The position numbers and the translations under genes are program-made. This document shows, piece after piece, positions 11,009 to 64,000 of a stretch of 64,000 nt of DNA. Where the stretch lies: the NCBI GenBank assembly GCA_017499595.2, contig CM039001.1, positions 3,534,001 through 3,598,000 of the forward strand. Reading direction: 5' to 3'. The stretch comes from Psilocybe cubensis (Eukaryota). The notes under the pieces are model-generated. The model was not told the origin of the DNA and made no database searches. It worked only from the letters and a program-made list of their open reading frames with translations. Each line of letters opens with the position of its first letter. Positions within the stretch are counted from its first letter, which is position 1.

Positions 11009-12642
11009 TAGATGGGTTTAACGCAACGTAAAAGAAGGAACCAACCCGTGTTATAGAACTCTGGAGTATCGGATTGTTGCGTTCTCCGAATGCCTTGAAG
11101 AGGTGAGAGAGAAAGTGCGTTTGAGAACTGACTTTGAATTTGATCAACGATGTCGGTCTCCGATGTGTGGATAACACCTATAATTCAGTCTAAGAAACAC
11201 ACTGGGCATATGGATTGTGCTATTATTATGAGTACCTTGTGCATTGATTTTATCAACCTCAACATTAGACGTTGGGGGAGACACCTTCACGACGGCATCG
11301 GAAGATACAAGGATTGAATTCTGACGGTGCCTTATTTCCGCAAGCGTGAGTTTGGATTTCTTGATGCTGGATGTCTCTGGCCGTTCTGCTGTCGAGGTTT
11401 GGACAATTTGGGGTGCTGGCGCTTAATGCATTGCGTTAATGTATAAGTATTTGGAGAGAATGTAGGGTGATCACTTCTCTGGAGCTCGGAACGTCCGTCA
11501 TCGTCATTTCTCAAGCTCTCTTGATACTCCGATATACGCCTCGCCCTCTCAGCAGCGCTCCTCCCTAGACGACGTGGTCAGCATATACGCAGATATTCGG
11601 AACGAGGGGCGACCTTTATGCATGTCGCTATCGTGGCTAGGATCAGGATCTAGGTGAGAGGTTACAACCAGTGGGGTTTGATTTGTCAGTGGTGATTAGT
11701 ATCATTATCCCTACAACATGCATGATCCATGAGGTCCATGACGGAATCAGCGTACCTAATATGGAAACTGCATCATGATATCCAGAGTGGGGGTCTCACC
11801 ACAAAAACCTGTAAAACCTCAGGCTCTAAGTTACCCGGACCAGGGAGATCTTTGCTCAGCGAAAGCGCTGGGTCAATTATTCGTATCTGTGAGGGAGCGG
11901 TGAGTCCCCCCGGAGTCGAGTCTTCAAGTTTCAGGGCCTTGGAGGCGGCCGGGGGACGGCAGGCATCCTTTTTAGAGTCCGAAAAACTGCTTTCCTACCT
12001 ACCATTGACCGAACTGAGATTCATAACATCATACAAGTGGGTAAAAATGATAAATTTGAGACTACAAATGGACTCACTACTGACTCGAACAAAAGAAGCA
12101 CTCTATTCAAAAAAAAAAAATCAAGGTAGGCTAAGGATCCAGCCGACGGATGGCGGGGATCGATAGCCGGACATCACGTGGGATCAGCCGGCGAAAGGCT
12201 CAAGAGCAGACAACTATTGGACCAGTTTGGGACCAGTACGGGTTAAGTACAGGCGCAGTACAAGACAGGTACTTGTTTATTATTTTATGAAGTTCATAAC
12301 TTTAAAATTTACGAGTGTTTTTGTAGATATCACAAAAGAATCAATTTATATTGAATGTTCAATTGTCTTCATCACAAGCGAGAAACAATTGCAACACATA
12401 ATATATTCGGTGGTCGTGGATTTCTAATTGTCCTAACTAAGCCTTTTAATACTAAATATTGACTTAGTTCGGATCGAAAAGTATAAATATGTGGTCATTT
12501 TCACTGATCGTGTAAATTCATTGTCACATTCGAATTTTAACAACTAATTTTTGAACACTTTTTCGCCCGTCGTTTAATCAATATTCCTAATCAAATTTTT
12601 TCTACATTTGTGACCATCAAAAATGAATTCTTGCGCGTAGTG

Positions 12643-21911: not shown

Positions 21912-24900
21912 TTAGAAAGCGCCCACGACAGACCTCCCAATATAACTATCCAGAACCTAACGAGATTTTAATATATATCAACGTACGAAGCAAATTAAAA
22001 AACACACCTTGTCAATCTCTTCGAGATGCTTGAACCCATCCGCATATATATCCCTTACCGAGGGGTGCAGCGCCTGCAAATCCAGCGGCGTGCCAAACAG
22101 CAACTCATCCACAGGGTGTGGGCGCGGGGTCGGCTTACTGGGCACGGACGCCTTGTACTCAATAATCGACATCATCTGCGTCAGACCAAAGTCGTCTTTG
22201 GGTATCACGATGCGTCGCTGTTGCTGCTGCGAACGCGTGCTAGAGGGCGTGCTTCGGGATTTACTATTCTCCTCCTCTACGCGCGACAAGCTTGACTGAG
22301 ATTGAACGGGTGTAGACCGTCCTCCAGAATTGACCGACATGATTGAGGCGATGGATGGGTTGCGCCGGTTGTTTGCGTTGATGTTCGCAGTGGGCGTCGG
22401 GCTCGTCCGCACGCCAGTCGGTGTCGTTGTCCCGGGTCGACTAGCCGCCCTCTGCTGTTCGGGGCTGGCATTAGCAACAGGCGTGGAGCGCGCGAGACTT
22501 TCCTGCTCGGTCGGCTCGCGCTTCTCCATATTCATTTTGCCAGCGAGCGCCGCAGAGCCTGGCGTTACCGAGCGCGAAGGATTCTCACCGTCGTCCACGG
22601 AATATTCTGACGTCGAGAGTGTAGCCGACAACGTCGACAAAGGTCGGCTATCCGCACTCACGCTCGACAGCGACGCGTAGTCCCTGCTGCCCCGGTCGCG
22701 GCCCTTGCCCTTGCGAATCTTATGCAGCACCCTGTCAAGCTTCTCCCCAATCCCGTCCTTGTTGCGGATGAACACGCCCTCAAGTAGGTCGTTCTTGTTA
22801 TTATTCCCGCCACCACCACCGCCGTTGTGCATCTCGCGCCACTCCTCTTCAATGATATCACTCACATCATATGTCTCGCCGTCGGGTTCGACGTACGAGT
22901 AGCGCATGCGGTCGCCCGTATCGTATCGCGCGCTGCGGAGCACCGCGTTGCCAGGGAGCAACACGTCCATCCCGCGCACGGAATTGGTCGACGCGGAAAC
23001 GATCGCCTTTTGTGTCGCGCGTGTGGCAGCGCGCTGCGCAGCTATAATCTCCTGCCGCGACGGCTGCTTGAGCTTGCCGCCCTCCCGTTCCCTGTCTTTC
23101 TCTTCCAGCTGCGCAACGGCCTCGGAGTTGAAACTTGAGGTCGACTCGCGGTGCAGGTGCTGCAGTGCAATTTCGTCGAGTGGTGCAGAGAAGCGTTTGC
23201 GTGAGGTGGAGTTGCGATAGGATGTGGAACGGCGGAGGACGAAGACGGGATCATCCTGGCGGATGTCGTCTATCGATCCAAGGAGCTGAGTGGAGTCCAG
23301 TGAACGGCGTTTGCTCACAGAATTTTGACTGTTCGGCGCTTTGAATTGCGGCGGGCGAGGGAATGCATCGATTACTTTGCTGGACGGCGATAACTCGCGT
23401 TCTAGGTAGAAAAGGAAAGAAAGTGAACATTTGACTGTGATTAAAAGTCCACAAATACTTACCTTGACCATCGATGCTAATCATCAATCCATATCTGACT
23501 CTGACTCCACTCCTACGCTTCGTCGTCTTGTCCTCAACTTCATCTCCCCCATCAATGACCCCATCCTGGATTCCAAACCTTTCCAGGCTGATCTCCGTTA
23601 CCTCTGCGACTGTCACATTCTTCGGGAACATAAACACCTTGCGCCTCAAATTCGGTGAGACGAGCACAGGCGCGTTCGGGTCGGTCAGCGTGTTCTTGAA
23701 TACAATCGCCTCTGTCTGTGGATGGAACGCCATATCATTGGGCAGGTCCTCGGCATAGATGACGAGTTGCATCGCGAAGCGCGTCGCGGGCGATGTGAAC
23801 CGCTCTGGCGCGACGTTCGCGCCGCCCACTGTTGATACAGTCAGGAACTGCGACTTGCTGCCACTGTGTGGCAAGTCGGAATCCGCCTGTGAGCGGTCGG
23901 GGCTGGTCAGCGTTTCGTCTCCGTCCTCTCCGTTGAGAATGTCATCCAATGGATGATCGCCCTTCCTGTTCAAGTAAAACTTGACGGCAGAGTCGTCTGT
24001 GAAGTCGTTCATGGGCAGCTTCTTGATGGCGGGGTGCATGGATAAGTTGCTTGATATAGAGCTGATGCTCCCGACGCTGCTGCGCTTTACTTTGGGCAAC
24101 TCTGTAGATTCGAGCAGGGTCTCAAAGACCACCAGGGGGTGTTCGACCGGCTGAAGCACCGTCGACGCGCCACCCTCAACCTGTTTGACTGTAAGATAGT
24201 AATCATCTACATCTTCGCCAGAGGGTAATCTGAAGCGCTGAATAGCCTGCCGGACAAGATCGGTTGATGTCGTAGACGGGTTGAGGAGGACAGTCTTGAA
24301 CGTCGCCTCGGTTTGTAGGTTCTCGCCCGCAAATACGCGGATAACGCTCAGATTTGCCTGGCCATCGATGGCAGACGGGCTAGTGAGAATCAGCGAGCCT
24401 GGACGTGGCCTTGTTGTCGGTGGACCCAATGCAGAGCTCGAGGATGGCGAGCTGAGCATCACAGCTGAAGCCGATTGCAGCCCGTACGAAGGCTGGGCCT
24501 CGGGCGGAGATGAGGGTGATCGATTGAGATACTCCTTGTACAACGTATATTGCTGTTGATCGCGCTGCCTTAGCTGGTTGACGTGCTCGGAGACCTGGGG
24601 GGTGTTGGAGCGCTCGGGAGTCGATGGGGTGGCTTGGTTTGAACCGGCGCGCATGTCCGCCACAGTATTCCGGAGGCTGATAGCCTGCTGTTGCTGCTGA
24701 GCGGCGGACGTTGTGGGCGAAATGCCGCCGTCCGACGCGGAAGGGCGTTGGCTTGATCGGCTCGACTCCGACGAGGCCCTGCCACTAAACTCGTTGCTCT
24801 CCACCGAGGCAATCGATGGACTCTTGTCTTTCGGCTTGTCCTTATTCTTCCGGCCAAACAAGCCACCAAACACTCCACCCTTCTTCTTTTTGTCCTTCCC

Positions 24901-26401
24901 TTCATCCTCAGTGTCGGTCTTCTCGCTCTTGATGGACGGCTCCTTGCGGAGCTTCGACCCATTCTGCTGCTGGGCCTGCTGTTGAGCCTGCTGCTTGTTG
25001 TATGTGGCTGAGCTGACGGGAGGGGCCATCTTCTCCTTGGGTTTAGATTTCTTCTTCGAGGATTCATCGGAAAGAAGAGACGACTCGTCGTCACGAAGTC
25101 TCCTGGAGCGCTCCTCCTCGACGACAATGCTGGGGAGATACTGCCCTGTGCGTCCGTCCTCGGAATCGCGAGCGATGGTCGGAGTGGCAGTCATCTTGCG
25201 GGTCTCAGTGACTTCTGCAGGGTCGATGCGGCGCGGACCCTGCGCAGATGCAGCGTTAGAATCCATTTGTCTCTGTTGCTGTTGAGCTTGTTGAGCGGCT
25301 TGCTGAGCAAGGGCAGCTTGTTGGGCAGCCTGTTGTTGTGCCATGGCCTGTTGCTGTTGCTGTTGTTGCTGCTGCTGCTGTAATTGCATTTGTTGTTGCA
25401 TCTTCTGGCGAACAAGCTGTTCTTCTTGCAGTTGTAGCTGCTCCTGTTGCTGTGCACGAAGCCTTTGTTGTTCCTGATACTCACGCATCGACCCAGGCAT
25501 TAATGCATCTGGAATTGGAGCACCCCCACCGGCGCCCGAGGGTAGGTTCAATTGAACATCCTCGGCTGTCGAGTCATCCCAGTGCATTCCATCGTCTACA
25601 TCCATCGACATCGACGCGAATTCGTCTTCCTCCATTTGGTCTTGCACCACCTCTAGATCTTCTTCCTCAAATCCATCAGTGTCCCATTCGTCATCTTCGT
25701 CCTCAACTTCGCCTTCTTTGAGCCCCGGGATAAAGCGGTGGTGGTAGCGAATGGAGTTGAAGCGGATGCTTCTCCTGTTGTTGGCATTGTTGTCGCGGCC
25801 TCCTCCAGTGGGGGAGTTCGTGTCGGAGCGGAACTGTACGTTGTTACGCCTGTCACCGATGCCAATTTCAACTTGTTCAGCTTGAGTGGGGAGAGCAAGC
25901 TATAACAAAGATAATATAAAACTTGATGGAAATCTCATAGAAACCAATACATACCTCGATATTTCGGTGTTTGTTCAAACGGGCAAGACGTTCGAAGGGA
26001 GTCTCGATGTTCTCTGCAGGAATGTAACCGACTTCTTGAGTCTTGAGCACTCGAACCAGCCACCAATAGCTGTTGTTGTCGTCCATGAGATACAAACTAT
26101 CACCCTTGACGACATTCGCCTGCCCCTCCACCGTCGCGGCAAAACTGTGCAAAGCATACACCATATCAAAGTCGATTGATTCGTTTGGAATAGAAAGCGT
26201 AGAAGAGACGTCTTCCTCAAACATCTCATCGCCTTCGTCGACCTCAGAGTCGTCTTCGAGGACTGAGTGCTCCTCGTCGTCCGTGCCGTAGTTCAATGCC
26301 GCGTCTGCATGGGCGTGTAGATTCTGGCTGTCGTCCGCATGGATCTGGTCGCGCAGGTCGAAAGTATCCTGGCGCGTTGGCCGTCGCGGGTCCACACTCA
26401 T
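21912..26401 (-). CDS. BUD14: Bud14/Tea4-like SH3 and Ras-association domain polarity protein (PP1 regulator)
   Basis: SIPNESIDFDMVYALHSFAATVEGQANVVKGD...NSYWWLVRVLKTQEVGYIPAENIETPFERLARLNKHRN (SH3), a poly-Q region, and an RA-like domain VIRVFAGENLQTEATFKTVLLN. The last exon reads VLDSYIGRSVVGAF*. Confidence 0.85.
25272..25452 (-). repeat. CAG/CAA-rich polyglutamine tract within BUD14/Tea4
   Basis: Repeated tgc/tgt triplets on the + strand encode QQQQQQQQQQQAMAQQQAAQQ on the minus strand. Confidence 0.85.
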
Positions 26402-40401: not shown

Positions 40402-43400
40402 ATGTCTGGTAACTTCAGAGCCAGACGCCCTGCTTCACCACCGCCTGGGGTGGTGTACTCATCAAATACCTCGCAGAGGTTTCCACATCCGCGGGATGAG
40501 CATCTGGATGCAGACGCGCGACGAGCTGCGGCGTCCAAGGGGTATGCGCCAGGGCGGAAGAACTATCCTACAGGAGGTCTAAACATCACGTCGGGCGAGT
40601 GGAAGCTGCTTTTTGTAATTGTGATAGTAGCATGCGCGGTACGGTTGTTTAGGCTGTCGAAGCCTAATAGTGTTGTGTGAGTTCCTAGCTTGCTTATACC
40701 GCTGCGGAGATACTTACGGAGCACAATGGAATACAGGTTCGACGAAGTGCATTTCGGGAAATTCGCATCGAGATACATCAAGACACGCTACTTTGTCGAC
40801 GTACACCCCCCTCTTGCTAAACTACTAATCACCCTCGCTGCATTCGTGTTTGGATATAACGGAGACTTTGACTTTAAAGATATTGGAAAGTGAGTGGTCA
40901 AGTGGCTAGATGTCTGAACATTCTGACATTTTGAAGAATCTATGAACATGTACCATACGTAGCCATGCGAATGGTGCCCGCAACCCTGGGTGTTGCGACG
41001 GTACCACTGGCCTATCTTACTCTGCGCGCGCTAGACTGCCGCGCCACAACCGCTCTTTTAGCTTCTATCTTCATTACCTTCGAAAATGGCATGGTCACAC
41101 AGTCCCGGCATATTCTGCTCGACTCGCCACTCATCTTCTTCACTGCACTCACCATTTTCTTCTGGTGCGGGTTCTGTAACGAGGACAAACATGCTGAACC
41201 CTTTTCCCCATCATGGTGGACGTGGCTTACGTTGACGGGTCTGGCCCTCGGCGCTGTGGTTAGCAGCAAGTGGGTAGGCCTGTTTACGATTGCTACTGTC
41301 GGTGTGAGCACAATGTTCCAGCTGTGGAACCTACTTGGTGACCTGCGCGTTCCTCCCCGCCTCTTCATGCGCCACTTCATCGCACGGGCCGTCTGCCTGA
41401 TCCTCGTACCTATTGTGTTCTACATGGCCATGTTCCAAATTCACTTCCTCATTCTCGAAAATTCTGGAGAGGGTGATGGTTTCATGAGCTCTGAATTCCA
41501 GCATACACTTGGAGGACGCGGGATGGCTGACACGTTTGCGGGTGCGCCTCAATCTCGGTCGGTATCTATAACGTCATACTGAACGTTTATTCTTAGATGT
41601 CGCGTTCGGCTCTACTGTGACGATCCGCCACGTAAATACACAAGGTGGATATCTGCACTCGCACCCCCACAACTACCCTGGCGGTAGTAAACGTGAGTTT
41701 TCTCATCCAGAATGTCTTCTCTTATTAAACAGTACGTTTCAGAGCAACAAATCACTCTTTACCCTCACCGAGATTCGAACAACGACTGGCGTCTCTTGAA
41801 TGCAACTATCGATGGAGACAAGGAATTTGATTGGCAATCTTCGCCACTCGAATACATCACCCCAGGGACACGCATCAAGCTGCGTCACCTTGCCACTGAA
41901 AAGCACCTGCACTCGCACGACATCCGCCCTCCCGTCTCCGACGTCGACTTCCAGAATGAGGTCTCAGCATACGGCATGCCTGGCTTTGTCGGCGATGCCA
42001 ACGATGACTGGTATGTGGAAATCGATCACGGTGATAAGCGCGACAAGGAGTCGTACAAGCGTCTGAGGACGCTCAGGACGACATTCAGACTGAGGCACGC
42101 GCTCACGGGTTGTTACCTCTTCTCTCACAAGGTTAAACTACCAGAATGGGGCTTTGAGCAGCAAGAGGTCACTTGTAACAAGAATGCTGTTCGCGCAAAT
42201 TCGCTGTGGTTCATTGAGACCGCTACTCATCCTCTTTGTGGGTTTCTTTCTTGATTAACTGTCTTTTTTTTTTTGTTTCACTGATACTGGCAATTTTATA
42301 GTGCCTTCCACGGCCACTAAAGTGAACTATCAACTGCCTGGGTTCTTTGCCAAATTCTGGGAGCTTCAACAAGTCATGTGGACCACAAACGCTGGATTGA
42401 CCGACCGCCACACATATGACTCCCGACCTGAATCATGGCCAACTTTGCGCCGCGGTATTGTGGGTGCCCTCCTATCTCATAAAGTGCTCTTCTAAACTTT
42501 TCTTGTAGAATTTCTGGGTCAAGGACCATCGACAAATCTACTTGATCGGAAACCCAATGGTCTGGTATTTAAGTACCCTCTCTATCGCTGCCTACGTTGC
42601 GATCCGCGGTATCCTTATCCTTCGCGCTAAGCGAGGATTCAGGGACTTTGACAATAGTTTGTCTGTTCCCCTCACTCGTTGGTACAAAATCTAACTGCTT
42701 CTTACTTTGCAGCCAAAGTTGTCAAGTATGACACCCTCTGCGGCTTCCTGTTCGTGGGGTGGGGTCTTCACTACTTCCCCTTCTTCCTAATGGGCCGTCA
42801 GCTCTTCTTGCACCATTACTTCCCTGCCCTCTACTTCGCTATCTTGCTTTCATGCAGTGTTTTCGATCTCGTGACGTCGACGCTTAGGCCACGCGTGCGC
42901 TTGCAAATCGCGGCAGTTCTGATGGTCTTGGCGATCTGGAATTTCCAGCATATGAGCCCCCTGGCGTACGGAAGTCCCTGGACGAAGGAGAAGTGCAAGC
43001 AGGCGAAATGGTTAAAGACCTGGGACTTTGCTTGGTGCGTCCTTCCCCCTATGTTTCACTTATTATAACTGTTAACCCTTCAAATTTATATTAGCAATGA
43101 CTTCTATGATAACTACTCTCAATATGAATCCTTTGGTGTAGCTACGCCGCAGAAGTCTGTCACTCCAGCGTTCACAACTATCGACGGAGATGGTCGCGGT
43201 CCCGTCGTCGTTCCCAACCCACAAAATCCCGGACACCCTCCGCCTAACCCCGAGACATCGGTCATTGCCGACAAGCCTGAGCCTGGTCGCGACATTTTTG
43301 CGGGCGAGCCCGTCAAGGACGTCAAGAGTGATGGCGTGTACGTTGCTGCCCACCACCAACCAGAACAGAAAATCGCAAAGGAGATTAGCTCTGTCAGGAT

Positions 43401-43755: not shown

Positions 43756-46700
43756 CTAGGCGCATGGCAGCTGGTACTCTGCTAAGATTGGGCTCATCAG
43801 GAACCAGCACGTTTACGTAATCAAAAGGCTTGGCGCCAAGAGCGGCCAAAATCGACTTCAGAAAAAATCAAAAGTTATGTCGACGGAAATTTAGTACAAA
43901 CACAAGAATAAATGGTAGAAAGTATCATGTAGAATAACATTTGTGCACTAGATAAGTGTATCTATGGTTTTCAAATGATAGAAACAGACTCTTATGCAGA
44001 CATATACTCTGCACGTACTTTGGCAATCATATCTGGAGGAAGTGTACGGTGACTATGATATCTCTTGTTTATCCAGTGAACTTGTGGACCAGTTAGACCA
44101 TGCTCATAGCCTGAAATAAACCTTGCTGATCGGTTTGCATATCTATTGAACATAATTAGTGAAAAGTTAAACTTTTATTTGTGAAAAGTATAAAAGAATA
44201 CCTTCTAATCTGAAGTAAAGGAATATCATCAAGGCATTGAATTACATTGGCTTCCATTTCATCAATGTTGCTTGTTTTGGGTGTATTACGATAGCGAAGC
44301 TTTGCTGCTCCCCAGTATTGTTCAATGAAATTGAGTTCACAATGATATTTCGGATAAAAATCACAGATGTGACCGCGGGAAGTGATCAATTCCTCAAGGC
44401 GTGATTTTTGAGCCACAAAGTCAGGTTGCATGAATAGAATACGTCGACAGCAGCAATCAGTCTTGCCTGGTTCGCATTTAAATCCTTCACATTGGGCAAG
44501 AAGTCCAGATTCTTTCCAAAGACCTCTTTCCCGGATAATTAATTCCATTCCTTTAAACCATCCGGGCATGGTGGGATGGTTTCTGATTCAGAATCAGAAT
44601 CTTCATCTGAAAGAGTAGAAGAAGATGGTTCTTCAAAGTAATCAAGAAATCCTTGCAAGGTGAAGGAGCCATCTTCATTATATGTTATAATCCCTTCATC
44701 ACTGATATACTCTGCAAGGCTCTTCACATTTGGGCCAGATTGGGGACTAGGGGTTGAGGATTGGATGTCCTCCTCCGGAATATCTTCAATAGAAACTGAA
44801 TGATGTTTCTTTTGTGCATATTTGCCCAGGTTTTTGGCTCTAGAAAGTGAGGCTTTGGATTTTCGGGCCATAGATATGATGTATGATGATAGTCGAGTGG
44901 TTCCAAGTGGTCTACTTTATTTTATATCGCTCAAATCACTGCCAACGAGGCTGAGAAACATGCATCGAGGCGTTATCATGATCTTCCGGGAGGTCACGTG
45001 ATCTATTATATAAGCGGCCAAAAGTGACTTCGTCGAATTTTCAGAAATTGCCCAAACTCGTTAAAACATCATTTCCAATGCTTTACAATAAAAAAGGGGG
45101 GGAAAATTTTGTAAGCCTTATATCTTTCTCAAAAAAAATTTTTTTTTCAAAAAAAAACCGCAGATCTATTCAGAAATACACCTTCTACATATCTGTGGTT
45201 TAAAAATGCAGGATAATGTGGTTGTGCGAGTGGTGAAAACGTTCGGAGGTAAGCCAACTTTTGCTTACCTAAGGGGGTGCTGGTTCCTGATGAGCCCAAT
45301 CTTAGAGCTGTCTCGCCGAAGTCCCATAGCTTCACAAATTTCAATCCAGCTGCTTTGCCTAGCTCGATAAACTCGGGTAGACGGCGTTCCTGGCTGTTCA
45401 GCGCGGTCATCATGTCCAAGTCGAGGTTGTACTGTCGAATCCGTCCGGCGCCAAAGTTTGGTAACATGGGTTCGGGCGCTTGTTTGAAAAGTGACTTGTC
45501 GTCGGGAACGCGGTTGGCATGTTGTAAGATATATTCCTCTGGAAAATATGAAATGTAAATTGGTAAAAAGTCTTTGGAATTCCTCCGTCTGTGAAGAGGT
45601 GGGGTGAATGCGACGCACGGACTAAAAGTCTGCTACGAGGAACCATAGCCTCGCGGACATTAGCAAGAATTCTGATACAATCGGCATCAGGCCAGTCGTG
45701 ACTGCAAATAAATAATTGTTAATCGCTGTAATAACATTTTACACATTGAAAACTTACACGATGTTTTTAAGCTTACGAGAATTATCTGTCAGGGGTTGCG
45801 CATCGTCCATTCAATTAAATAATGGACTCACATAATATATGTGGCATCCCGACACTGGAGACTCTGCGAAGAAGTCCAAAGGTTTGAACTCAATGCGGTT
45901 CTCGGCAATAGCCTCTGGACATTGTACAGGCCATATTTCATTTTGTGCTTGCTGAATGGCTCCAGGAAGATCCTGGAGAATGAGTTGAAGCTTGGGATAC
46001 GCCTTCGCTAGCTGAATGGTGATATTCCCGATACCTCCCCCGACGTCGCAGACGGTGGCGCCATCCGGAAGTTCACCCCAAGGGAATTCTTGATTTCAAA
46101 TAACTTCAGTCAGGGTTTCTGTCTGCCAGATTGATTCATTCACTAAAGGTCTCACGCACCGTGAATGACGGACTGGGCTTCACTTGCGGTACCCCAGCCG
46201 ATCATACCAAGCCCGAAACGAGCGCCTCGCTCAGCGCCCTTGGGCTTATCCTAGCGATCAAAGTCGATCTTTTAATCATCTTCTGTGCAATGAGGTGATG
46301 TAATTTCAAAACGCACCGTCTCGTAATACACAAATAATGGATCTGGGAATCCGGTGTACTTGTTGAATGCAGTGTGGTTTGGGGCATAAGAATGACCCCA
46401 TTCCTTGTCCGCCAGAACGTCTGAAAGTAGGACGGTTGACTTTTGGCACTCATCCGTACTTCCAGGTTAAATGCGTTTAGCTGCTATACGGAAACTGATA
46501 ACAAATGAAGCGTACAAGTGTAGTCCTAGACTGGACAGAGGATTTGTACTAAGAAGTTGAACGCTGAGACGATTGTTTGCGAAAACATTTTCGGATACTG
46601 TCCCGAACGCAAGTCAGCGGAATCGCAAAGAGGTATGAACACGTCCTACCTTCTCGAAAGATGTGCTTCGACGCAAGAAGCCTGAGAATTCTCCCGACTT

Positions 46701-55988: not shown

Positions 55989-56072
55989 ATTCAAGTTTGA
56001 ACTCAACAAGAGTCCGAGGGTCCGAGTAGAAAGTAATGCGCATAGCATTTAGGACCATCTCTATGGTCATTA

Positions 56073-56515
56073 GTGCTACTCAATTCTCTTTTTTACGATG
56101 TTGTTTAATTTTTAAAACCATGTGGAACAGTTTAGCCGACGTGCTTGGTAGTAAATTCATGTGGTGTATACTGATGGTGTGCCTTTCTGAGTTTGAATGA
56201 GCTTGAAAGCGGCCAACATGCCAACCGCAGCAACGGCGTCTTTTTTCTCTTTGCGCACATTTTCAGCTATGGCTGTCTCTCTAACGCGCGAGTACGCGCC
56301 ATATTGGAAGAAATATATACGAATAGGGGGATTCTAACGAAGATGATTAGATGGCTACTGATAACTTTGAGAACGGCCGTTCGGCATGGGTATTGATAGA
56401 TTCAAATACCGCCATGATGTGCACCACATGAATTTACTACCAAGCACGTCGGCTAAACTGATCCACATGGTTTTAAAAATTAAACAACATTGTAAAAAAG
56501 AGAATTGAGTAGCAC
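56073..56515. mobile_element. MITE (443 bp) with 94-bp terminal inverted repeats and TA target duplication
   Basis: 56073-56166 is the reverse complement of 56422-56515 with 2 mismatches. TA at 56071-72 and 56516-17. No convincing coding content. Confidence 0.9.
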
Positions 56516-56679
56516 TATTGTATGAACGCTGGGAATTCCACATGGCTTCAACGAAAGAACCTATCGAGTCTGACAGCGTGTGGTCCCGGTGATGACAAAT
56601 ACTTACATTGCAGCGTCGCTATTTGCTCTTCCTTGTCCTGAACCCTATGAACTAAAGTCTTGCATGCCTGTCTGGCAGA

Positions 56680-57426
56680 CTCTCTGCACAAATAGGCCGA
56701 GTCAAGAGGGGTGCGTCAGTTGCCACAGCGAGCGGGATGAACGATGAGCGGGCTTACCTGGCCTGGGTGCAACCTCAAACCCAGCCACCGTCAAGCTACC
56801 CTTGCAGCTGCAGAATGGATCGCTTAAAGTTGGGTCAGAACCACAGAAAACTCACCTGCACACGAGAGGTCTACGCTGCAGACTAGCATAAGTAGGTGCG
56901 TTAATGTCTACAGCGAGCCCATGACACGTTATTTTGCTTACCTTGCCAGCACATTGTCAATACTGTCTAGGAGAAGAGCGGATGAGGGGAATGGTAACGA
57001 CCCAATCCTTCTCCGTGCAGCGCATAGATCTGCAAGAATCGGTCAGAGGACGTCGTCGAGGCCATATGCACAATACCAGACTCGCTGCGCAAACATGCCG
57101 AGTCAAGAGGGGCGCGTCAGTTGCCACAGCGAGCGGAATGAACGATGAGCGGGCTTACCTGGCCTGGGTGCAACCTCAAACCCAGACTGCGTCACAGCGC
57201 GTCAATGTCTACAGCAAGCCCATGACGCGTTGTTTTGCTCACCTTGACAGCACATCGTCGGTCCAGTCTAGGAGAAGAGTGGATGAGGGGCACGGCAACG
57301 ACCCAATCCTTATCAACACTCACCGTGCAGCGCATCAACGCCTAGTTCTGCAAGAATCGGTCAGAGGAAGTCGTCTAGGCTGTCGGCACTCGCTGCGCAA
57401 ACAGGACGAGTCAGGATGGGTGCGTC
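56680..57426. repeat. Degenerate tandem duplication, ~300-400 bp unit, about 2.3 copies
   Basis: Block gccgagtcaagagggg..cctcaaacccag at ~56696-56784 and ~57097-57185. Block aatgtctacagc..gaatcggtcagagga at ~56903-57050 and ~57204-57368. A partial third start at ~57389. Confidence 0.85.
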
Positions 57427-57653
57427 ACATCAGCAATACCGGGGCCAAGTAGGTAATGATCCGTAGTGATACGTAATTCTGTAGTGCCCATAGTAACGGT
57501 CCCATTTGGGTAACACACACTGATGTACCTGTAGCTTGGTACCAACGTGACATGGTACTCTGTAGTGATCTGTATTGTAACGCAAGTGCTGTGTAGCGGC
57601 GTGTAGCATGCTTACCATGGTCCATACCCCTCTGTATACAACTGACATACAAA

Positions 57654-57724
57654 TTGTAGCATACTACCACAGATTTGTAGCATGCTACCACAGATTTGTA
57701 GCATGCTACCACAGATTTGTAGCA
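57654..57724. repeat. 21-bp minisatellite (ttgtagcat[a/g]ctaccacagat) x ~3.3
   Basis: Directly visible tandem units; translates as CYKSVVA repeats on the minus strand. Confidence 0.9.
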
Positions 57725-57992
57725 CATCATAACACACTGCAAATAGGTACAAAGGCATATATAGTATCCACTTTCATTTGTATAGTGTTGTGTGGCTATT
57801 CCTGCAAGTGCCAATATCACACTGAAAACCGAACCATTTTTGACTAAAATGGGCAATTTTAAAAATAGATAATCTATGTTTGGATCGGACCAAACATGTT
57901 TCTATTAGTAGATGCATAACTATTAATACGTGACGATCTAAATATGGTATCTTCTAATCCACACCCGGCAGCTGCCCCGCTCATTCACCCAA

Positions 57993-60652
57993 CTACCCTT
58001 CTGGACCGTAATCTAGTTCCTCCTGTGGGATAGAATGGAGAGTCATCCTATAAGGGTTGGGGGGGTTCTTCGTAGGCCTCATAATAGCACTGATTATGGA
58101 GATCTAAATGATGCAAAGAAAGAAATGAATAAAAAAAGATACACACCATCCTTCCTCAGCCACTTCCCTACATAAGCGAGCCAAGCGAGGACCTTGGTTC
58201 AAGGTATCCTTCTCTGCCTCTGCTGCAACCAACATGCAGGCATCATACCTCAGGGAGTACTCCTCTCCCTTGAATTCAATACCCGAACACGGACCACCTC
58301 TTGCAGGGTCAATCCCATCCCTCCACTCCTCAAGACAGTTGTGGATCTACAGCAAAATGCTTGTTAGCAAGGCAGTGCCAATAGCAGGAGAGAAATCAGA
58401 ACTACACAACTGGCCACAAGCGCAAATGCTTTGTGGGGAAGCGATGTCTTGAAGAAATCCGTCTTTGTCTCCAGACCTTTGATGGGGACTGCAACCCCTT
58501 TTGTAGGATGGTAGAAGAAGTCCAGACAGATCTTCTTCACAAAAGGATGTCCAAATGGGACATCGTGATACTGGAAACAAATCAATGAGTGGTAAGCCAG
58601 GTAAAATGGACGGCGAACTCACTCGGGTTTTGGCAACACCCCGGTGGTATTTACCATTGAGTAGCCAATATGCTACCCTGTCCTTGATGTATTCGATCTC
58701 CCCCATCTGATTTTCAAACATATTGGGGTTCGTGGCGATGACCTCCGACGGGACTTCGAGGCCATACGCATTTTTGACCAGGGGTCTGATCATCGTCTTC
58801 AGTCTTCCCCGGAAGGTTGACGCGTAGACAAATGCCTAATGAGAACAGACACGTTAGTACAATATCCTTAAAAGAACACGCTAAAAATATACCGTTACGG
58901 CGGTATTCCTGTCTAGGAGCGTTTTTTTCTCTGCAAAGTTATGTAAACCAATTAACTAAAATCACAGAAGACAGAACTTACTATCAGGCAACACTTTATC
59001 CGTGTTCATTCTTTCAAACACGGTTACTGCCATCTTCACACATCCATCGGCGACTAATAAGTGATTTTCCCGAGTGGGAAAGGGGACCTCCTCTACTACA
59101 TACAGGCACATCAGTTTGCATGCAATTTTGAGCACATCTTTCCAGTAACCAGTAAAGGATGCAACTGAATGCTTGGATACTTCCCTAGCAGAAGAAGTAC
59201 TGGACTTCTTATGAGCGATGTGTGCCTCACCAAGCACCTCATCATCGTCAGATGCTTCGTTGTTCTCCCTTGTCAAACCTTGGGATACGGCTCCTTGCGA
59301 AACAGCCGCCTTGCGCAATGCCTCAGGGCGAGGTGGCTTGTTCGCCCGATTACGACGACGGTGTTCTTGAAGAACATCCTCTACTTCCACAACCTATATC
59401 AATAATACATTAGCTAGACATTAAATACAGCAGAGAAATGATTACATGGGGGGAAGGCTGGCGGAGCAATGCCCTTGCTCTCCTCTCCTCTTCATCATCG
59501 GAAACTTCATCAACCACTGTCAAACATAGGTGGTAAGCAAACACGACATAAAGGTGGAGTTAAACCAACGCTGGGCAGCAGGCTCTTCATCATCTTGACC
59601 CGCGTCGTCGTAACCTTCATCACCGTCGACATATTGGAGAGCTTCTTCATCCCCAATATTCTCTTCATCAATTCCTTGCATGCATTTGTCCCCTGATGCT
59701 TCCTCAGATCGCCTTTCACCGTCACTATCCCCCTCTTCCTCCTCCTCCTCATCTTCCTCCTGCTCTATGCCTTCGTAATCTTGTTACTCCTCCTCGTCTT
59801 GATGGCTGATGCTAGCCTCGCATCGTAGTATTGGACAGAATTCTCTGCCGCAGGGGCAGCGTAACGCTGAACAGGATTTGCTGCGTGTTGTACAGGGCGC
59901 GGGACAGGATGTGCTGCATGTTGTACGGGGCGCGGGACAGGATGTGCTGGCTGTTGTACCGGAGCAGCGGGGCGCTGGATGGGGGCAGTGGGTCTTTGGA
60001 CAGCATGATCAAGCTCTGAGTGCTCCTGATTTCTCTGAGCTGCACGTTGGATCTGGACAGGAGGGGGGGCACCCTGAGATTGTCGTGGGCTTGGTTGGAC
60101 TTGTTGGACATCCCAAGGAGCAACTGAAGGCGTTGGCCTTGGTTGCATTTGAATAGGGGGACCTACATGCGACACAACGGTAACCTAGACGTGCTTGGAA
60201 GATAGCAAATTTAAGATTAGAACAGTAGACTCACCCCATTGCGAGGTTTCTTCAAGGGAGGCGCCATCTCATTTTCAGGCATGGCGCTAGTATCCACATT
60301 GGCGGCCCTTGACTTCCTCTTCCCAGCCTTCTCGAAGTCAATAAAAATGATGTTAGATGTTTTCTCCTGCCGAGCATTTACTCCACCAAGACCACGGGTG
60401 CTTCGGATAGGACGGCCATTGTGGTCTTTTTAATAAGGAGTTCAGTGAATCTCAACAAAGAAAATGCTAGTACAGACCTGCTTCAGGAGCCTGAGGTGGC
60501 TTGTTTTCTGCCACGGAGCTCGGACCCTGTTCAACCTCTTGTCCTAGATGGATAAAACATTAAGTATGCGGATGTAATGAGGATATATAGATGATACCTT
60601 CAACCGTGGCATTGACAACCGCCTTTTTCTTTTTGGATCCTTTAGGTGGCAT
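57993..60652 (-). CDS. Multi-exon DUF6532-like protein (transposon-associated), Pro/Gln and acidic low-complexity N-half
   Basis: MPPKGSKKKK start, VPFPT, TFRGRLKTMIRPLVKNAYGL, PFGHPFVKKICLDFFY, LPHKAFALVASC/IHNCLEEWRDG..EFKGEEYSLRY, ending ELDYGPEG*. The pattern matches my recollection of DUF6532. Confidence 0.7.
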
Positions 60653-60923
60653 ATTGGGCTGGTTTGACGGTTGTAATGCAGAAATAGAGACAAGGGGTGG
60701 TGAATTATGTCAAGCTACGATCCGGAGGTATGCGAAATTAGCCTCTTTTCAAAATTTAAGGCGACGGACATCAGTCAAAAATATATCGTGCCATATAGAA
60801 ATTACAGGTACTGAAACAGTATCCCTATCTACTACAATATATCACATATACATTATAGTCAGATTCCATGTCCTACTTAGAGTTAAGTAAAGTTACATCT
60901 CAGAGGGGAAAAGACTGCACCTA

Positions 60924-61279
60924 TCATGATCGCGGATTATCCTGAGGGTGCATTAGAATAGGTATTCCCCGACTAATGAGGGATACCCGTAGACGGGCGA
61001 TTTCGAGCTGGGTTTCAAACAGAAGATCTTCATTGGATTTATATGCTCGCATAATGTCGTCCATATAACAACGTAGCTCTGCCTGAACTTCTAGACACCT
61101 CTGTTCAGTGAGTTGAAATTGGTCAAGAGCCTTTTTAACGGCCTCTATGCCTTGATTCTAGAGGAAGGTGGATTAAAACATGAAAATAGACCTAAAACGA
61201 AGAACTCTGCCTCTTCGGGTATGCTAGGGAGGCGGCGACTTTGAGGTTGCAAAGCGTTGTTGCTATTGGAATGGTTCAT
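60924..61279 (-). CDS. Small two-exon coiled-coil hypothetical protein
   Basis: MNHSNSNN..EFFVL, intron ~61145-61191, then EAVKKALDQFQLTEQRCLEVQAELRCYM..LEIARLRVSLISRGIP..NPRS*; in frame after splicing. Confidence 0.5.
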
Positions 61280-61446
61280 GATAAAGATAGGCAACAATTT
61301 GGTGTGGTGGTGGTGGCTTAAGTTCAAGACGATCAACACATTACGAACCATTAGCACTGTTGATTGCCGAAATACACTTAAATAGAATGACATAAAACCC
61401 GTATATGTCTACAAGTCCGTGTTCGAGATACAAGTAATGCTGCACC

Positions 61447-63705
61447 CTACATATTTACAACTTTGACACCACGGGACGGGGGGAAGATTTGAATCAAAGA
61501 TGTTGTCGGAAAAGTTGGGAATGTATCACCGCGTTTCATACGAGTAACGGGATATTTATGTACAACGCAAATATCCTTGTCTATTGATCGTATCCTGAAT
61601 ATAATCCCCATTGAATCGCCCTCAAGCGGTGTAACGAAGTCGTCCTTTTTTACAGGATGAATTGGAAACAACACTGATTTCGGTAATGTCAGTGTACGTC
61701 CCAGTAATGCTAGGTGGGCAGTATCGTCGGTAAGGCTGAGAAGTTCCATCGCCACTTGATGGTCGCCCTTGGATTTGTCTACGACTTTTAATCGTAATCC
61801 TTTCAGCTTATCGTATTTCGTATCTAGCCAGTGAGCGACGGTTGAGGGTAGTTCTGCGATTTCCACCGCCGAGTGTACAGGTATTGCTGAATACGGATTC
61901 CATGCAGGAGACAGAAAACTTGCTACTGTGGACGGCATTGGAGTTGCTCCACCAGAAGGCCCGGGGTCTTGAGCGGAATTTATATGTTCTCGGTTGCTTG
62001 AAACAATGTCAGTAAGCACCTGACAGTCAACGAATCAAGTGAAACCACATACTGTATAATTAAATGTGATATTTTAATACGTTCCACCCTCTGGTTACAA
62101 GCTTCCAGCTCAACGTCTGCAAAGCCGTCGGGGGTAGTGCTTTTAACGATGCCATAGTACCCCTTGAATGTATTATTCCCGACAACGATGACACTCAAAC
62201 CTATATAGACGTCGTTGTGGTCTCTTTCTCCAAGCTTTGACGAATGACGCTTTCGCGGGCGAAGAGTAGCATGGGCAGGGGGGACGTAGAATATGACTGT
62301 GTGGATGGGCACAATGACCTGAAAAATGTGTTGAACACTACTGAGACAAAGAGAATGACAGTTCACCTACTTCGCGTTCGTGCTCTGGGGCGATAATACA
62401 AACAGATCTTCCATCAAAGTCTGACACCCATCCATGGAGATCTTTGTGATCCCCTTCAACGACTTCAACACTATCGCCTATCTGGAAAGCTGCACGTAGA
62501 TCGTGTAGTGCAACTGCTTGTGTTATACCTTGGGAGGGGATGTGCACTTCCACCTCAGCGTCAGAAACACTCTTGACCGTTCCAAAAAGACCTAAGTATT
62601 CTCCACCAATAATTTTGACTCGATCATATCGTTTCAGTCGAGTCATGGAGATGGCTTTCGAGGCTTGCGCTAAGGTCTCCGTCGTTACAAATGGACACTC
62701 GCGAAATTGCTCCAACTCGGACGATGTTGGGAGGACATTGGAAAGATATTTGAGATCGATGGCGTCGAAATCCGTGATAATAAATCCATCCTGGAATATC
62801 CTGTCGAGGTGCGATTTCTTGATGTTGTCCGGAGGTCTGGGGATAAGAACAACACTTTTCCAACCCTGGAATGTGAACACAAGGCCGGTAGCATTTGCGT
62901 AGGTCGTCCAAGCCTTACGCTTTCCAGCAACCTTGACCCACGATTGGTCTTCAGGGCGTGAGGGTGGGGGATGAGATAGGATCTCCATACATCTCTCCGA
63001 GGATAGCCTAACTAAATGTGTCGGATTAAGCTCTCTAACGAGGCAGGCTAACGTATGCGCATGTTGCATTGATGGCGCCTCGACGTAGATTCTCCCAGGA
63101 ATTGAGGATTGAGCGAAGACAGACCGGGCAAGGATGATGGGAAATGTAGGGTTCGTTGACATCTGCATAATTTTGAAAGCGACGGCCTCTTCGCGTCCAA
63201 CCTATCACTCGTAAGGTGATCAATAAATGCTGACTGAAGACTTATATTATTTTTGCGTACCTTGCAACCTATTTCATACATGATATCAGTCGCGGAAGGC
63301 ATATAATTATTATCACCAAGTCCTCCTGGTTGGGGATTGCCATATTTCTGTATAAGTTCTCGTGAACTAGATGGCTCTATATCATTGTCAGGACGAATTT
63401 TCATGCGTGAAGGCAGAAGCATGGGCAACAAATCGCTCCATTCATCAGTGTTATCTGTATTTTGCATGGCATGATATAGCCGAGAGTGTGCAACACGTTC
63501 CTCATCCTCAGAGTATTCATCGTTATCATTCACTGTATGTCAGAACCCATTAGCATCAGTACATATTGAGCAGAATATATGTAAATTATTGGAACATACG
63601 TAGTTGGCCCCCTTCATAATCAAGCTCTTCCGAACTTTCATCATCATCGGAAACCGCTGCTTCAATGTCTATGAAGGGATTAATGTCCTGATTTTTTGAG
63701 ATCAT
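61447..63705 (-). CDS. Divergent Spt5-like transcription elongation factor paralogue (acidic N-terminus, NGN domain, KOW motifs)
   Basis: INPFIDIEAAVSDDDESSEE (Spt5 N-terminal-like). NGN-like MYEIGCK/VGREEAVAFKIM..SVFAQSSIPGRIYVEA. KOW motifs LKRYDRVKIIGGEYLGLFGTV, FQIGDSVEVVEGDHKDLHGWV and YIGLSVIVVGNNTFKGYYGIVK. A single GATP..SPAWNP repeat-like remnant. Confidence 0.8.
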
Positions 63706-64000
63706 AATTAAATTTCCCTGAAGTTAGTGATTAGATGGAGGGTTGGATTAGTACACACTGTGCGGTTGCCTAGGCTGTCAAGTCGTCTGCGTTTATAACT
63801 AGACATTGTGGGTCTTAAAGACTGTTAATCGATGTTCATCTCACTTAATTTATCATCTTAACTTGTGATAATTTATTTTTAGATACTACACAACCTATTA
63901 CTATGATAAGACACTATGATGAACGGAAAGAGAAAACATATGGTGAGAAACACGCTATTTCCGGAGCGATTCTTTAGGGTAGGTTTCCCGTCCTGAAGTC

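Follow-up and report, generated by a model that had tools for sequence, protein, structure and literature searches.

To our knowledge, no transcription factor other than Spt5/NusG is shared by all domains of life, and the eukaryotic Spt5 paralogues known to us are host genes that serve transposon silencing; one of these, plant KTF1, carries long GW/WG AGO-hook repeats. ActX and LoaP are NusG paralogues associated with horizontally acquired or mobile DNA and with their own long transcription unit. Transposons in turn encode proteins other than transposases: En/Spm (CACTA) TnpA and VANDAL VANC counter methylation-based silencing of their own element, and TET/JBP dioxygenases were reportedly found in fungal DNA transposons by Iyer et al. 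in 2014. Kojima 2025 (PMC12730594) describes TET/JBP dioxygenases as cargo of three kinds of element, Kyakuja, Zisupton and Plavaka. RfaH is a specialised NusG paralogue that makes RNA polymerase resist termination and silencing (PMC7593976), and a specialised Spt5 paralogue of Paramecium, Spt5m, is described in a paper on Spt4-Spt5 (PMC8934623).

The gene described here belongs to Psilocybe cubensis (GCA_017499595.2, contig CM039001.1, positions 3,534,001-3,598,000 of the forward strand; this whole 64,000 nt stretch is called the window). It encodes a compact Spt5 paralogue carried as cargo by a DNA transposon, an identity in which we have high confidence. The Spt5-like gene has 6 exons (63806..61447, minus strand, 684 aa) that splice into an open frame across GT..AG introns of 52-71 nt. 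Residues 9-672 of the spliced protein align with residues 10-686 of the 688 aa protein P0020, making it collinear from end to end with full-length family members, and both exon structure and full-length collinearity are conserved in the family. An earlier note on this DNA had the place of the gene right but let it begin at 63705. Exon 1 is common to two annotated Psilocybe cubensis models, and, judging from the sequence, the CDS most likely starts at 63806, one exon upstream of that first model, so that the gene spans 61447-63806 rather than 61447-63705. In read set X15 (raw DNA reads under the same species label, 1631.7 M letters) no indel occurs within this CDS at 10% or more of reads. Coordinates are collected in Table 1.

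Table 1. Positions, in window coordinates, of the Spt5-like exons, the element that carries them and other features
Feature	Position	Strand	Description	Evidence or remark
Separate tnp2 gene	7887-11017		In window, outside element
PMT gene	40935-42254		Present in window
Multi-copy DNA transposon, visible part	57428..64000	-	At least 6.57 kb; genes all on minus strand	Continues past right window end
Element terminus 5'-CATCA	57428..57432	+	Same as published PlavakaB terminus
Subterminal repeat region	57428..57760	+	Nine direct TGTAGY motifs; includes 21-bp x3.4 tandem array, 57654-57724	TRF
Weakly DUF6532-like cargo gene	58104..60709	-	Acidic and Pro-rich stretches	Approximate boundaries
Tandem repeat, 33 bp x2.7	59871..59959	.	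Within DUF6532-like gene	TRF
Small ORF(s) between two larger genes	60924..61279	-	Co-oriented; putative model	No Pfam match better than E 0.14
Spt5-like exon 6	61447..61996	-	S/T-P-rich linker, SPAWNP, KOW6-KOW7-type double barrel, stop codon
Spt5-like exon 5	62053..62318	-	Linker and KOW5-like barrel
Spt5-like exon 4	62371..63201	-	277 aa; NGN (PGRIYVEA), KOW1 with shortened insert, KOW2, KOW3
Spt5-like exon 3	63261..63532	-	Remaining acidic region and NGN strand 1 (..YEIGCK)
Spt5-like exon 2	63600..63687	-	Acidic N-terminal region begins, DINPFIDIEAAVSDDDESSEE	Spt5_N E 0.006 on ORF; splice sites
Spt5-like exon 1	63759..63806	-	MSSYKRRRLDSLGNRT, basic NLS-like start	tblastn: P0158 16/16 identical, P0001 15/16

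Pfam searches of the exon ORFs gave a marginal match to Spt5-NGN (23.8 bits, cut-off 22.4), matches to KOW2_Spt5 (51 bits), KOW (32 bits) and KOW5_SPT5 (26-31 bits; exon 5 at 26.1, under the cut-off of 27), and a weak match of Spt5_N to the FIDIEA exon. The best scores elsewhere in the family are 50.8 bits for Spt5-NGN and 53-54 bits for KOW5_SPT5. A profile of the family recovers human SPT5 with an overall E of 1.5e-66 and is collinear with it over residues 74-518 (domain E 2e-60; residue 74 onwards aligns with part of exon 3) and 703-831, the portion 211-508 (NGN-KOW3) alone giving E 7e-47; in the profile alignment PGRIYVEA, the NGN core strand, pairs with human KGYIYVEA. Human residues 519-702, which hold KOWx-KOW4, have no match in the family profile, and KOW3 and KOW5 are about 45 residues (~33 profile positions) apart. 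KOWx_SPT5 and the full canonical domain set are absent from all compact-family members scanned with Pfam, in which KOW4_SPT5 appears only as an overlapping match on generic KOW motifs, whereas the canonical proteins P0103 and P0124 have full-length KOW4_SPT5 plus KOWx_SPT5 matches. Exon 5, with its KOW5-like barrel, is kept in 35 of the 163 proteins compared; the NCBI model P0158 skips it.

A single CTR-like motif, SPAWNP, lies at 61894-61911, and its SPAW.P core is present in the family consensus; the Pfam CTD profile (PF12815), which scores 84 bits on canonical P0103, has no match in the Spt5-like protein. For the C-terminus, sequence searches alone gave no KOW6-KOW7 match; an AF2 model of the last exon (pLDDT 85-96 over residues 60-170) has as its best fold match 5ohq, human DSIF KOW6-KOW7 (E 2e-6, TM 0.75 on target, rmsd 3.9). 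The AF2 model of NGN-KOW1-3 (exon 4, pLDDT 86.3) returns Spt5 chains in Pol II complexes as its top Foldseek matches (E 3e-14). Homology and fold together predict six KOW-type barrels (KOW1, 2, 3, 5, 6 and 7), where the earlier note had counted at least three motifs. The gene is a compact Spt5 paralogue that keeps the acidic N-terminus, followed by NGN, KOW1, KOW2-3, a KOW5-like barrel, a single CTR-like motif and KOW6-7, and that is without KOWx-KOW4 and without the CTR repeat array; its ~16 transposon-borne copies show that this is a gene other than the housekeeping Spt5. The earlier note had read a gene with Spt5 domain order, from an acidic FIDIEA N-terminus to one SPAWNP remnant and a C-terminal domain, and had taken it for a specialised paralogue rather than the canonical gene. 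The open splice frame, the NGN and KOW profile matches (their absence would have counted against that reading) and, for the C-terminal domain, the modelled fold all agree with it. The copy in the window is unusual in KOW1, whose insert is ~40 residues shorter than in the family and whose Y.GD motif is lost (it reads YANATG), and in a pair of amino-acid changes of its own that derive from CpG sites, R to W and R to C; on both counts this copy may be decaying.

Canonical Spt5 (the DSIF large subunit; Spt4/5) shares with the Spt5-like protein a collinear acidic N-terminus, NGN, KOW1 with its eukaryote-specific insert, KOW2-3, KOW5 (as a KOW5-like barrel in the present copy) and the S/T-P-A-W motif, and its KOW6-7 fold is matched by the modelled C-terminal part. 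It differs in length (about 1000-1100 aa, against about 684 aa), in having KOWx-KOW4 and an array of phosphorylatable repeats instead of one motif, and in being a single essential gene instead of transposon cargo; identity to a canonical fungal (chytrid) Spt5 is 23% over NGN-KOW3. Other lineage-specific Spt5 paralogues tied to transposon and non-coding transcription are SPT5L/KTF1 of plants (RDM3, Pol V) and Spt5m of Paramecium; the family profile recovers the RDM3 chain 8hyj_W with E 2.4e-29. Those are host genes for silencing or DNA elimination, whereas the gene described here is encoded by the transposon itself. The GW/WG repeat region characteristic of KTF1 is missing: the spliced protein has two GW dipeptides, both in the KOW-rich part. 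RfaH, ActX and LoaP would resemble it in proposed function only, as dedicated NusG/Spt5 paralogues on mobile DNA. RfaH-type proteins consist of an NGN and one fold-switching KOW with ops recruitment, whereas six KOW barrels in a eukaryotic architecture are predicted here; the protein is not an RfaH-family member and is at most a possible analogue.

Among transposon cargo, TET/JBP offers a parallel. The elements that carry it share Agaricomycetes hosts with the present one, whose CATCA terminus is of the PlavakaB type, and they too carry a host-type chromatin or transcription factor; in one Agrocybe gene model a member of the Spt5-like family is fused (or adjacent) to a Tet_JBP domain. TET/JBP is, however, a DNA-modifying enzyme, and the cargo in P. 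cubensis an elongation-factor paralogue. TnpA and VANC are likewise second element-encoded proteins, and the present element resembles CACTA ends in the organisation of its subterminal repeats, but TnpA and VANC are unrelated to the Spt5-like protein in sequence and fold and work by DNA binding and hypomethylation instead of as a polymerase-bound elongation factor.

We propose that the protein would bind host RNA polymerase II with its conserved NGN core (PGRIYVEA), where host Spt5 would otherwise sit. Having neither the CTR platform nor the portion of the RNA clamp formed by KOWx-4, it would uncouple the polymerase from the host controls of pausing, termination and co-transcriptional silencing, and complete transcription of a long, co-oriented and presumably CpG-methylated element would be favoured. 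The earlier note had suggested as a possible purpose that such a factor drives transcription through silenced chromatin, or competes for Spt4/Pol II. The protein could then be seen as the eukaryotic counterpart of RfaH/ActX-type NusG paralogues and as a partner of other anti-silencing cargo such as TET/JBP. That the element, in ~16 near-identical copies, brings its own Spt5 along suggests a tuning of host transcription to its advantage. We give this Pol II mechanism on behalf of the element close to an even chance at best, and the statement as a whole, of a transposon-borne compact Spt5 acting on Pol II for the benefit of the element, slightly less than an even one.

Besides the transposase, CACTA-type elements typically encode another, lineage-specific protein, which binds to their subterminal repeats (En/Spm TnpA), and the present element has such repeats: nine TGTAGY motifs within 333 bp, while 333-bp segments across the whole window average 0.20 motifs, with a 99th percentile of 2. 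The Spt5-like protein could be an accessory factor of this kind in transposition or self-regulation, using its KOW/Tudor-like barrels on DNA or RNA (subterminal repeats, transposase, its own transcript) and not acting on Pol II elongation. Fold searches also find likeness between KOW6-7 and KOW2-3 and readers of the tandem Tudor, Agenet and SH3-like kinds, and the CTR array and KOWx-4, which have the closest ties to elongation control within Spt5, are the ones that are missing. Two observations make this alternative unlikely, though still one to be reckoned with. Pfam found no DNA-binding domain in the Spt5-like protein or in the family members scanned. Moreover, the NGN core and the order NGN-KOW1-KOW2-3-KOW5-KOW6-7 are kept under purifying selection in a very diverse family, which is hard to explain unless a Pol II-binding scaffold still matters.

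The same pattern of an NGN kept while the CTR array and KOWx-4 were lost would also be expected of a decoy or dominant-negative protein, which titrates Spt4 or fills the Pol II clamp throughout the genome without elongation activity of its own and so blunts Spt5-dependent silencing or termination; ~16 gene copies could supply the high dose. A genome-wide antagonist of an essential factor should, however, be costly to the host, and the KOW5-like barrel and KOW6-7 are conserved although a decoy has no need of them. We rate the decoy as somewhat less probable again than an accessory factor.

An exhaustive HMMER search found 359 representatives of the Spt5-like family at E<=1e-3, all named members being Agaricales; word-indexed protein searches returned one near-length relative and none longer. 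In a tree built without canonical Agaricales Spt5, 97 compact rows part from 6 rows of canonical architecture with an SH-aLRT of 95, on a short dividing branch (0.15). Fourteen metagenome loci were found with a single-protein query, which reaches close relatives only. Among the diverged copies of these (L001-L012) dN/dS is 0.16-0.30 at dS up to about 0.98, and the exon-4 equivalents are intact in 8 of 10 metagenome copies. A tnp2/CACTA-type transposase adjoins the gene in 5 of the 14 loci; among the four independent copies whose flank measures 3.8 kb or more, this makes three. L004 and L012, only 80-84% identical to each other, both keep the transposase-then-Spt5-like order; L004 has no convincing terminal inverted repeats. 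For the transposases next to these genes the best profile is Transposase_21 (43.5 and 40 bits), Plavaka reaching 18.8 and 17.7 bits, under its cut-off, and among the best 120 of 577 matches in a search of the transposase family none is named Psilocybe. The metagenome gene unit has a sharp 5' boundary with the motif AGGTCATGTGAT, which may be an element end or a conserved promoter; the motif is not enriched in the window (8 matches, 6.2 expected). The other ORFs of the element have no relatives in the 14 loci. The family is large and old, under purifying selection, and found repeatedly beside tnp2/CACTA-type transposase genes.

The earlier note had proposed phylogeny and dN/dS among copies as a check, and the result is not neutral evolution but constraint, in compact rows separate from the canonical ones. 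A transposase, which it had proposed to look for to the right of the window, adjoins the gene in most of the independent metagenome copies with sufficient flank, and is absent from the visible 57428-64000 of the element itself (Pfam on ORFs). These data weigh against the possibility that a CACTA-type element captured a host SPT5 in the manner of Pack-CACTA, with no function for element or host. CACTA elements are reported to be able to capture host DNA (Pack-CACTA), and the window copy does show CpG decay, two amino-acid changes included. Against this stand the low dN/dS at considerable dS, the intact ORFs, the derived architecture and exon structure shared by 359 diverged representatives, and a gene that is complete, with its own introns and start, and not a fragment; we consider a neutral transduplicate quite improbable.

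The evidence that the element is mobile comes from read depth. At a single-copy depth expected to be ~36x (1631.7 M letters over contig sets of 40-47 M letters), X15 covers 56534-57334 at ~34x and 57602-64000 at ~546x (24-bin mean), the step falling exactly at 57428 and the depth staying high up to the window end; from this rise we estimate ~16 copies. At 57428, 232 loose read ends lie 'before' the terminus with a consensus agreement of 0.42, indicating many different flanks, and 21984 of the 27631 placed reads are alike at 99% or more. Among database proteins, annotated P. cubensis models come nearest, and these lie on two contigs of 4.19 and 3.62 Mb. The element is a young, multi-copy cut-and-paste DNA transposon, and carriage by a mobile element, as the earlier note had suspected, is supported by the depth, the heterogeneous flanks, the two contigs and the relatives beside tnp2. 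That the gene instead belongs to a host (domesticated) Spt5-like family in repeat-rich DNA, the depth reflecting segmental duplication, is very improbable: the L001/L003 lineage (one independent copy) does have the gene, and its flanks show no transposase over 4.6-6.1 kb upstream and 6.6 kb downstream, and databases label family members as ordinary SPT5 or KOW proteins, but the depth step is base-exact at CATCA, the flanks disagree, the copies are near-identical and on different contigs, and the unit shared by L002 and L003 begins at CATCTGCC, some 680 bp further upstream than the gene unit.

The 20-mer at the terminus is unique within the 64-kb window, the rest of which holds no other sequence similar to the element. 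The right terminus and the target-site duplication, of 2-3 bp in elements of this type, are outside the view, as only 194 bp of sequence upstream of the start codon are left in the window. PlavakaB elements have the ends 5'-CATCA..TGATG-3' (Kojima 2025, section 3.2.2, PMC12730594), and a provisional assignment of the element to PlavakaB in the CACTA superfamily (CMCT) is based on one terminus, since the transposases of relatives score best as Transposase_21 and weakly as Plavaka. Relative to the majority of copies, 11 of the 14 listed near-fixed differences in the window copy are CpG to TpG/CpA, a decay that would predict CpG methylation.

A wider reading, which we put forward tentatively and consider rather less probable than the mechanism for this one element, is that a large and ancient group of CACTA/Plavaka-type transposons of mushroom-forming fungi encodes a CTR-less, KOWx-4-less Spt5, which would replace host Spt5 on element-transcribing polymerases and make them resistant to termination and heterochromatin. 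This would be a transposon-borne equivalent of RfaH/ActX, belonging with TET/JBP to an anti-silencing toolkit. We found no published description of a transposon-encoded Spt5 in the literature searched, nor any paper there combining Kyakuja with Spt5. The main text of Kojima 2025 (PMC12730594) has 0 occurrences of Spt5, KOW, NGN or elongation, although the Plavaka consensus in its Data S1 may contain the ORF; papers on Ganoderma and Marasmius mention neither Spt5 nor KOW, and Muszewska 2017 does not mention KOW. Among the papers listed in searches of the CACTA and transposon literature, Spt5 occurs once, in an unrelated Euplotes paper, and neither Spt5 paralogues nor Basidiomycota are treated in a 2026 survey of elongation factors.

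Here the Spt5 paralogue is encoded by a transposon itself, in a recently amplified element and a large family under selection. Should the protein reprogram Pol II for the element, it would represent a new class of transposon counter-defence and an experiment of nature, with a privileged transcription unit that can spare certain Spt5 modules (CTR, KOWx-4) or is harmed by them. It also opens to direct test the way in which transcription of long DNA transposons gets through methylated chromatin, and carries a warning for annotation: 'SPT5' genes in Agaricales genomes are often transposon cargo.

The gene next to the Spt5-like one within the element, called DUF6532-like in the earlier note, is indeed co-oriented, but its similarity is weak: two collinear matches, of 23 bits (profile 55-101) at 58347-58835 and of 14.6 bits (profile 158-188) at 58104-58346, are each under the cut-off of 24. 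The repeat tract noted nearby corresponds to the 33-bp and 21-bp tandem arrays of Table 1. The small ORF(s) between the DUF6532-like and Spt5-like genes may encode a coiled-coil protein. Outside the element, two sequencing runs, guessed to be RNA, gave contigs over 56000-57427 only and have no bearing on element expression. In one X13 contig the 20 letters past 57427 recur at 56719, behind another copy of the internal repeat of the gene that adjoins the element; this extension may be an empty site or only a repeat path and is not counted as evidence. Within the element, reads and one X1 contig carry 85 extra letters at 59819/59820, where 368 and 269 reads have loose ends.

We show that a recently amplified DNA transposon carries as cargo a collinear Spt5 derivative that is under selection. 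The Spt5-like gene was modelled by splicing minus strand 61380-63760 at GT..AG sites, which gives an open reading frame, and tblastn with two annotated proteins (97-99% identical) supplied an additional 5' exon. The resulting model has introns 1-5 of 71, 67, 59, 52 and 56 nt and a product of 684 aa. The preceding five-exon version aligns with family members over nearly its full length in single HSPs (residues 9-672 with 10-686 of 688 in database protein P0020; 4-662 with 7-679 of 690 in P0057), and relatives of the exon left out by the NCBI model P0158 occur in 35 of 163 proteins compared; the hand splicing of the earlier note was therefore essentially right, except that the start codon, judging from the tblastn alignments, probably lies 101 bp upstream of the one it gave.

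Exons of the Spt5-like gene in the final six-exon model (window coordinates)
Feature	Position	Strand
Exon 1	63806-63759	minus
Exon 2	63687-63600	minus
Exon 3	63532-63261	minus
Exon 4	63201-62371	minus
Exon 5	62318-62053	minus
Exon 6	61996-61447	minus

The Spt5 domain order claimed in the earlier note is backed by Pfam, by profiles against human SPT5 and by fold matches. Pfam searches of the exon ORFs recover Spt5-NGN (23.8 bits, cut-off 22.4), KOW2_Spt5 (51), KOW (32) and KOW5_SPT5 (26-31), with a weak Spt5_N match at the FIDIEA motif. A profile built from the largest exon plus 21 relatives gives a collinear match to human SPT5 211-508 (E 7e-47) through NGN, KOW1 and its insert, KOW2 and KOW3. 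The full-length family profile matches 74-518 (domain E 2e-60), 703-831 (KOW5 and the start of the C-terminal repeat region, CTR) and, weakly, 907-1048, with no counterpart in that comparison for 519-702. The last exon matched nothing in the PDB by sequence; its AlphaFold2 model (pLDDT 85-96 over residues 60-170) has as best fold match the human DSIF KOW6-KOW7 crystal structure (5ohq; E 2e-6, TM 0.75 on target), and the best fold matches of the largest-exon model (pLDDT 86.3) are Spt5 chains of Pol II elongation complexes (E 3e-14). From these matches, the protein is a compact Spt5 ordered as acidic N-terminus, NGN, KOW1, KOW2-3, KOW5, one SPAWNP and KOW6-7, lacking KOWx-KOW4 and the CTR repeat array. 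The missing modules are present in canonical proteins among the matches; the chytrid Spt5 P0103, to which the NGN-KOW3 exon is 23% identical over 331 columns, has Spt5_N, NGN (86.5 bits), KOW1, KOWx, KOW4, KOW5, CTD and KOW7. The window lineage has additionally lost the Y.GD motif of KOW1 and ~40 residues from the insert of that domain.

Raw public DNA reads from run X15, which bears the same species label, were mapped on 56000-64000. For single-copy sequence ~36x is expected (1631.7 M letters read, contig sets of 40-47 M letters). Three bins in 56534-57334 had summed depths of 31.5-35.8, and the 24 bins covering 57602 to the end of the window had 383-640 (mean 546), ~16-fold over the neighbouring stretch, with ~553 over the Spt5-like gene itself. 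The depth steps at 57428, where 232 reads have loose ends with a consensus agreement of only 0.42, and therefore many different flanks; this base-exact step, the elevated depth and the heterogeneous flanks bear out the transposon-like setting first proposed from sequence. Most mapped reads (21984 of 27631) are at least 99% alike, and the Spt5-like CDS has no indel present in 10% or more of the reads. Contigs of another public run, X1, have a k-mer depth of 123.5 over 58836-63976 vs 9.6-13.2 in neighbouring contigs, which is suggestive only.

The element ends at 57428 with CATCAGCAATACC; termini of PlavakaB are given as 5'-CATCA..TGATG-3' with duplications of 2-3 bp (Kojima 2025, PMC12730594, section 3.2.2). 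Its first 333 bp hold nine direct TGTAGY motifs (window mean 0.20, 99th percentile 2 per 333 bp) in a region that includes a 21-bp x3.4 array, a layout that is the subterminal-repeat organisation of CACTA-type ends. Two more co-oriented units, a DUF6532-like gene and a small ORF, lie between terminus and Spt5-like gene; the neighbour named in the earlier note is thus co-oriented and inside the element, and its likeness to DUF6532 is weak. The element extends past the window end; neither a transposase nor the right end is visible in the part within the window. At 59819/59820 the window copy is short of 85 letters that reads and one X1 contig contain; this private deletion, whose length is no multiple of three, falls among the Pro-rich repeats of the DUF6532-like gene.

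Of the 14 listed positions at which the window copy departs from nearly all reads (17 more exist beyond these), 11 are CpG in most copies, with TpG or CpA in the window copy. Two of the 11 alter the Spt5-like protein, R to W at 62862, which agrees with annotated copies, and R to C at 62099. The observed/expected ratio of CpG stands at 0.78 within the element and at 0.96 over 1-44 kb. On sequence grounds, we read the CpG loss in the window copy as a footprint of cytosine methylation.

A JGI metagenome scan with one family member returned 14 loci (72-99% identity), in five of which a tnp2-type transposase adjoins the Spt5-like gene (L004 and L005, which are one locus; L006 and L007, also one; and L012). 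Counted as independent copies, and taking those with 3.8 kb of flank or more, three of four have this neighbour, upstream and co-oriented in L004 and L012 (identical gene order at only 80-84% identity), downstream and convergent in L006 and L007. In the fourth, L001/L003, the 4.6-6.1 kb upstream and the 6.6 kb downstream contain no transposase; even so, the unit it has in common with L002 starts at CATCTGCC, ~680 bp upstream of the gene unit. L004 repeats the exon layout, basic start and FIDIEA motif of the window gene. In 8 of 10 loci the exon-4 equivalent keeps an open frame (one stop in L004, six in L013). The dN/dS ratio, which the earlier note had put forward as a check, is 0.16-0.30 between diverged copies (dS 0.16-0.98 among L001-L012 pairs; near-identical pairs are uninformative and those with the frameshifted L013 were left out), against neutral evolution. 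In four copies (L004:9349, L003:3876, L012:9306, L002 at ~1210) upstream similarity ends at one common base, (T/C)AGGTCATGTGAT..AAAAGACC..CCCTAAGTGATGGCGGC, ~160 bp upstream of the first coding exon; this base may mark either a module boundary within the elements or the edge of conserved promoter sequence.

The closest database proteins are from Psilocybe cubensis: one split model on a 4.19-Mb contig (JR316_0004106 + JR316_0004105) and a 603-aa 'SPT5' on a 3.62-Mb contig, from both of which the window copy differs (tblastn). A more distant member, JR316_0012587 (36% identical), is on a third contig. An exhaustive HMMER search gave 359 representatives at E<=1e-3, of which 89 reach E<=1e-10. All named members with the compact architecture are Agaricales (Psilocybe, Cyclocybe, Agrocybe, Panaeolus, Gymnopilus, Galerina, Tricholoma, Arthromyces, Hypsizygus, Tulosesus), several species having multiple members; Atlas look-alike clusters, leads only, are mostly Basidiomycota. 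A quick ML tree of 103 rows separates 97 compact from 6 canonical-architecture rows (SH-aLRT 95), on a short branch and with canonical rows from plant, chytrid, gregarine and unnamed sources, canonical Agaricales Spt5 being absent. Gene models from Agrocybe chaxingu and Cyclocybe aegerita join the compact Spt5-like part to a Tet_JBP domain (P0006, Agrocybe, 2041 aa) or an RTC4-like domain (P0021, P0033); such models may reflect genuine fusions or the merging of adjacent cargo genes.

In the literature searched we found nothing linking Spt5, KOW or NGN to fungal transposons, an earlier mention in Iyer et al. 2014 or in supplements being possible, and the Plavaka/KDZ and fungal DNA transposon literature examined makes no mention of Spt5-like cargo. 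Specialised Spt5/NusG paralogues and transposon accessory genes are kinds already known, and public databases already contain the sequences under generic names.

The Spt5 CTR is a platform for host kinases, phosphatases, Paf1C/Rtf1, capping factors and termination factors. Through the conserved core of its NGN, the Spt5-like protein would still bind the Pol II clamp, and because the CTR platform and KOWx-4 are absent, a polymerase carrying it would show weaker pausing, termination and co-transcriptional silencing, thereby helping transcription of a long, co-oriented, methylated element. Such a model would resemble RfaH/ActX-type NusG paralogues and would be consistent with the TET/JBP cargo of related elements. 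Alternatively, the protein may have a TnpA-like role at element ends or on element RNA, or may serve as a decoy that draws off Spt4 or Pol II across the genome. The dN/dS values speak against a neutral captured gene, and the sharp depth step and varied flanks against a host gene in repeat-rich DNA.

To the left of the element lies a single-copy gene (56534-57452) with internal repeats of ~300-400 bp, whose 54-nt GT..AG intron (56894-56947) is absent from contigs of two presumed-RNA runs. The insertion may truncate this gene, since 57428 falls within its last long ORF (56925-57452). A foldback, MITE-like element at 56068-56520 (99-nt arms, 97% complementary) is covered at ~10 times the read depth of the adjoining single-copy sequence and shows many variant positions; it looks polymorphic between strains, because contigs of runs X13 and X14 lack exactly 448 bases there. 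A second, separate tnp2/CACTA-type transposase gene (7887-11017, minus; Transposase_21, 38.6 bits, with a 504-aa downstream ORF) is 34-38% identical to the transposases adjoining Spt5-like genes in the metagenome loci; in the window it has no adjoining Spt5-like sequence and its termini were not found. The segment 48053-55805 is a diverged tandem gene triplication (unit ~2.85 kb, 60-84% identical) with long minus-strand ORFs that have no Pfam match. Perfect 29-bp inverted repeats 1466 bp apart (43782-45305) enclose an ORF with a weak DDE_3 match (20.5 bits), probably a small Tc1/mariner-type element. Lastly, 21978-25899 (minus) has a G+C of 0.55-0.57 vs ~0.46 elsewhere and a long ORF with a Ras-association (RA) domain.
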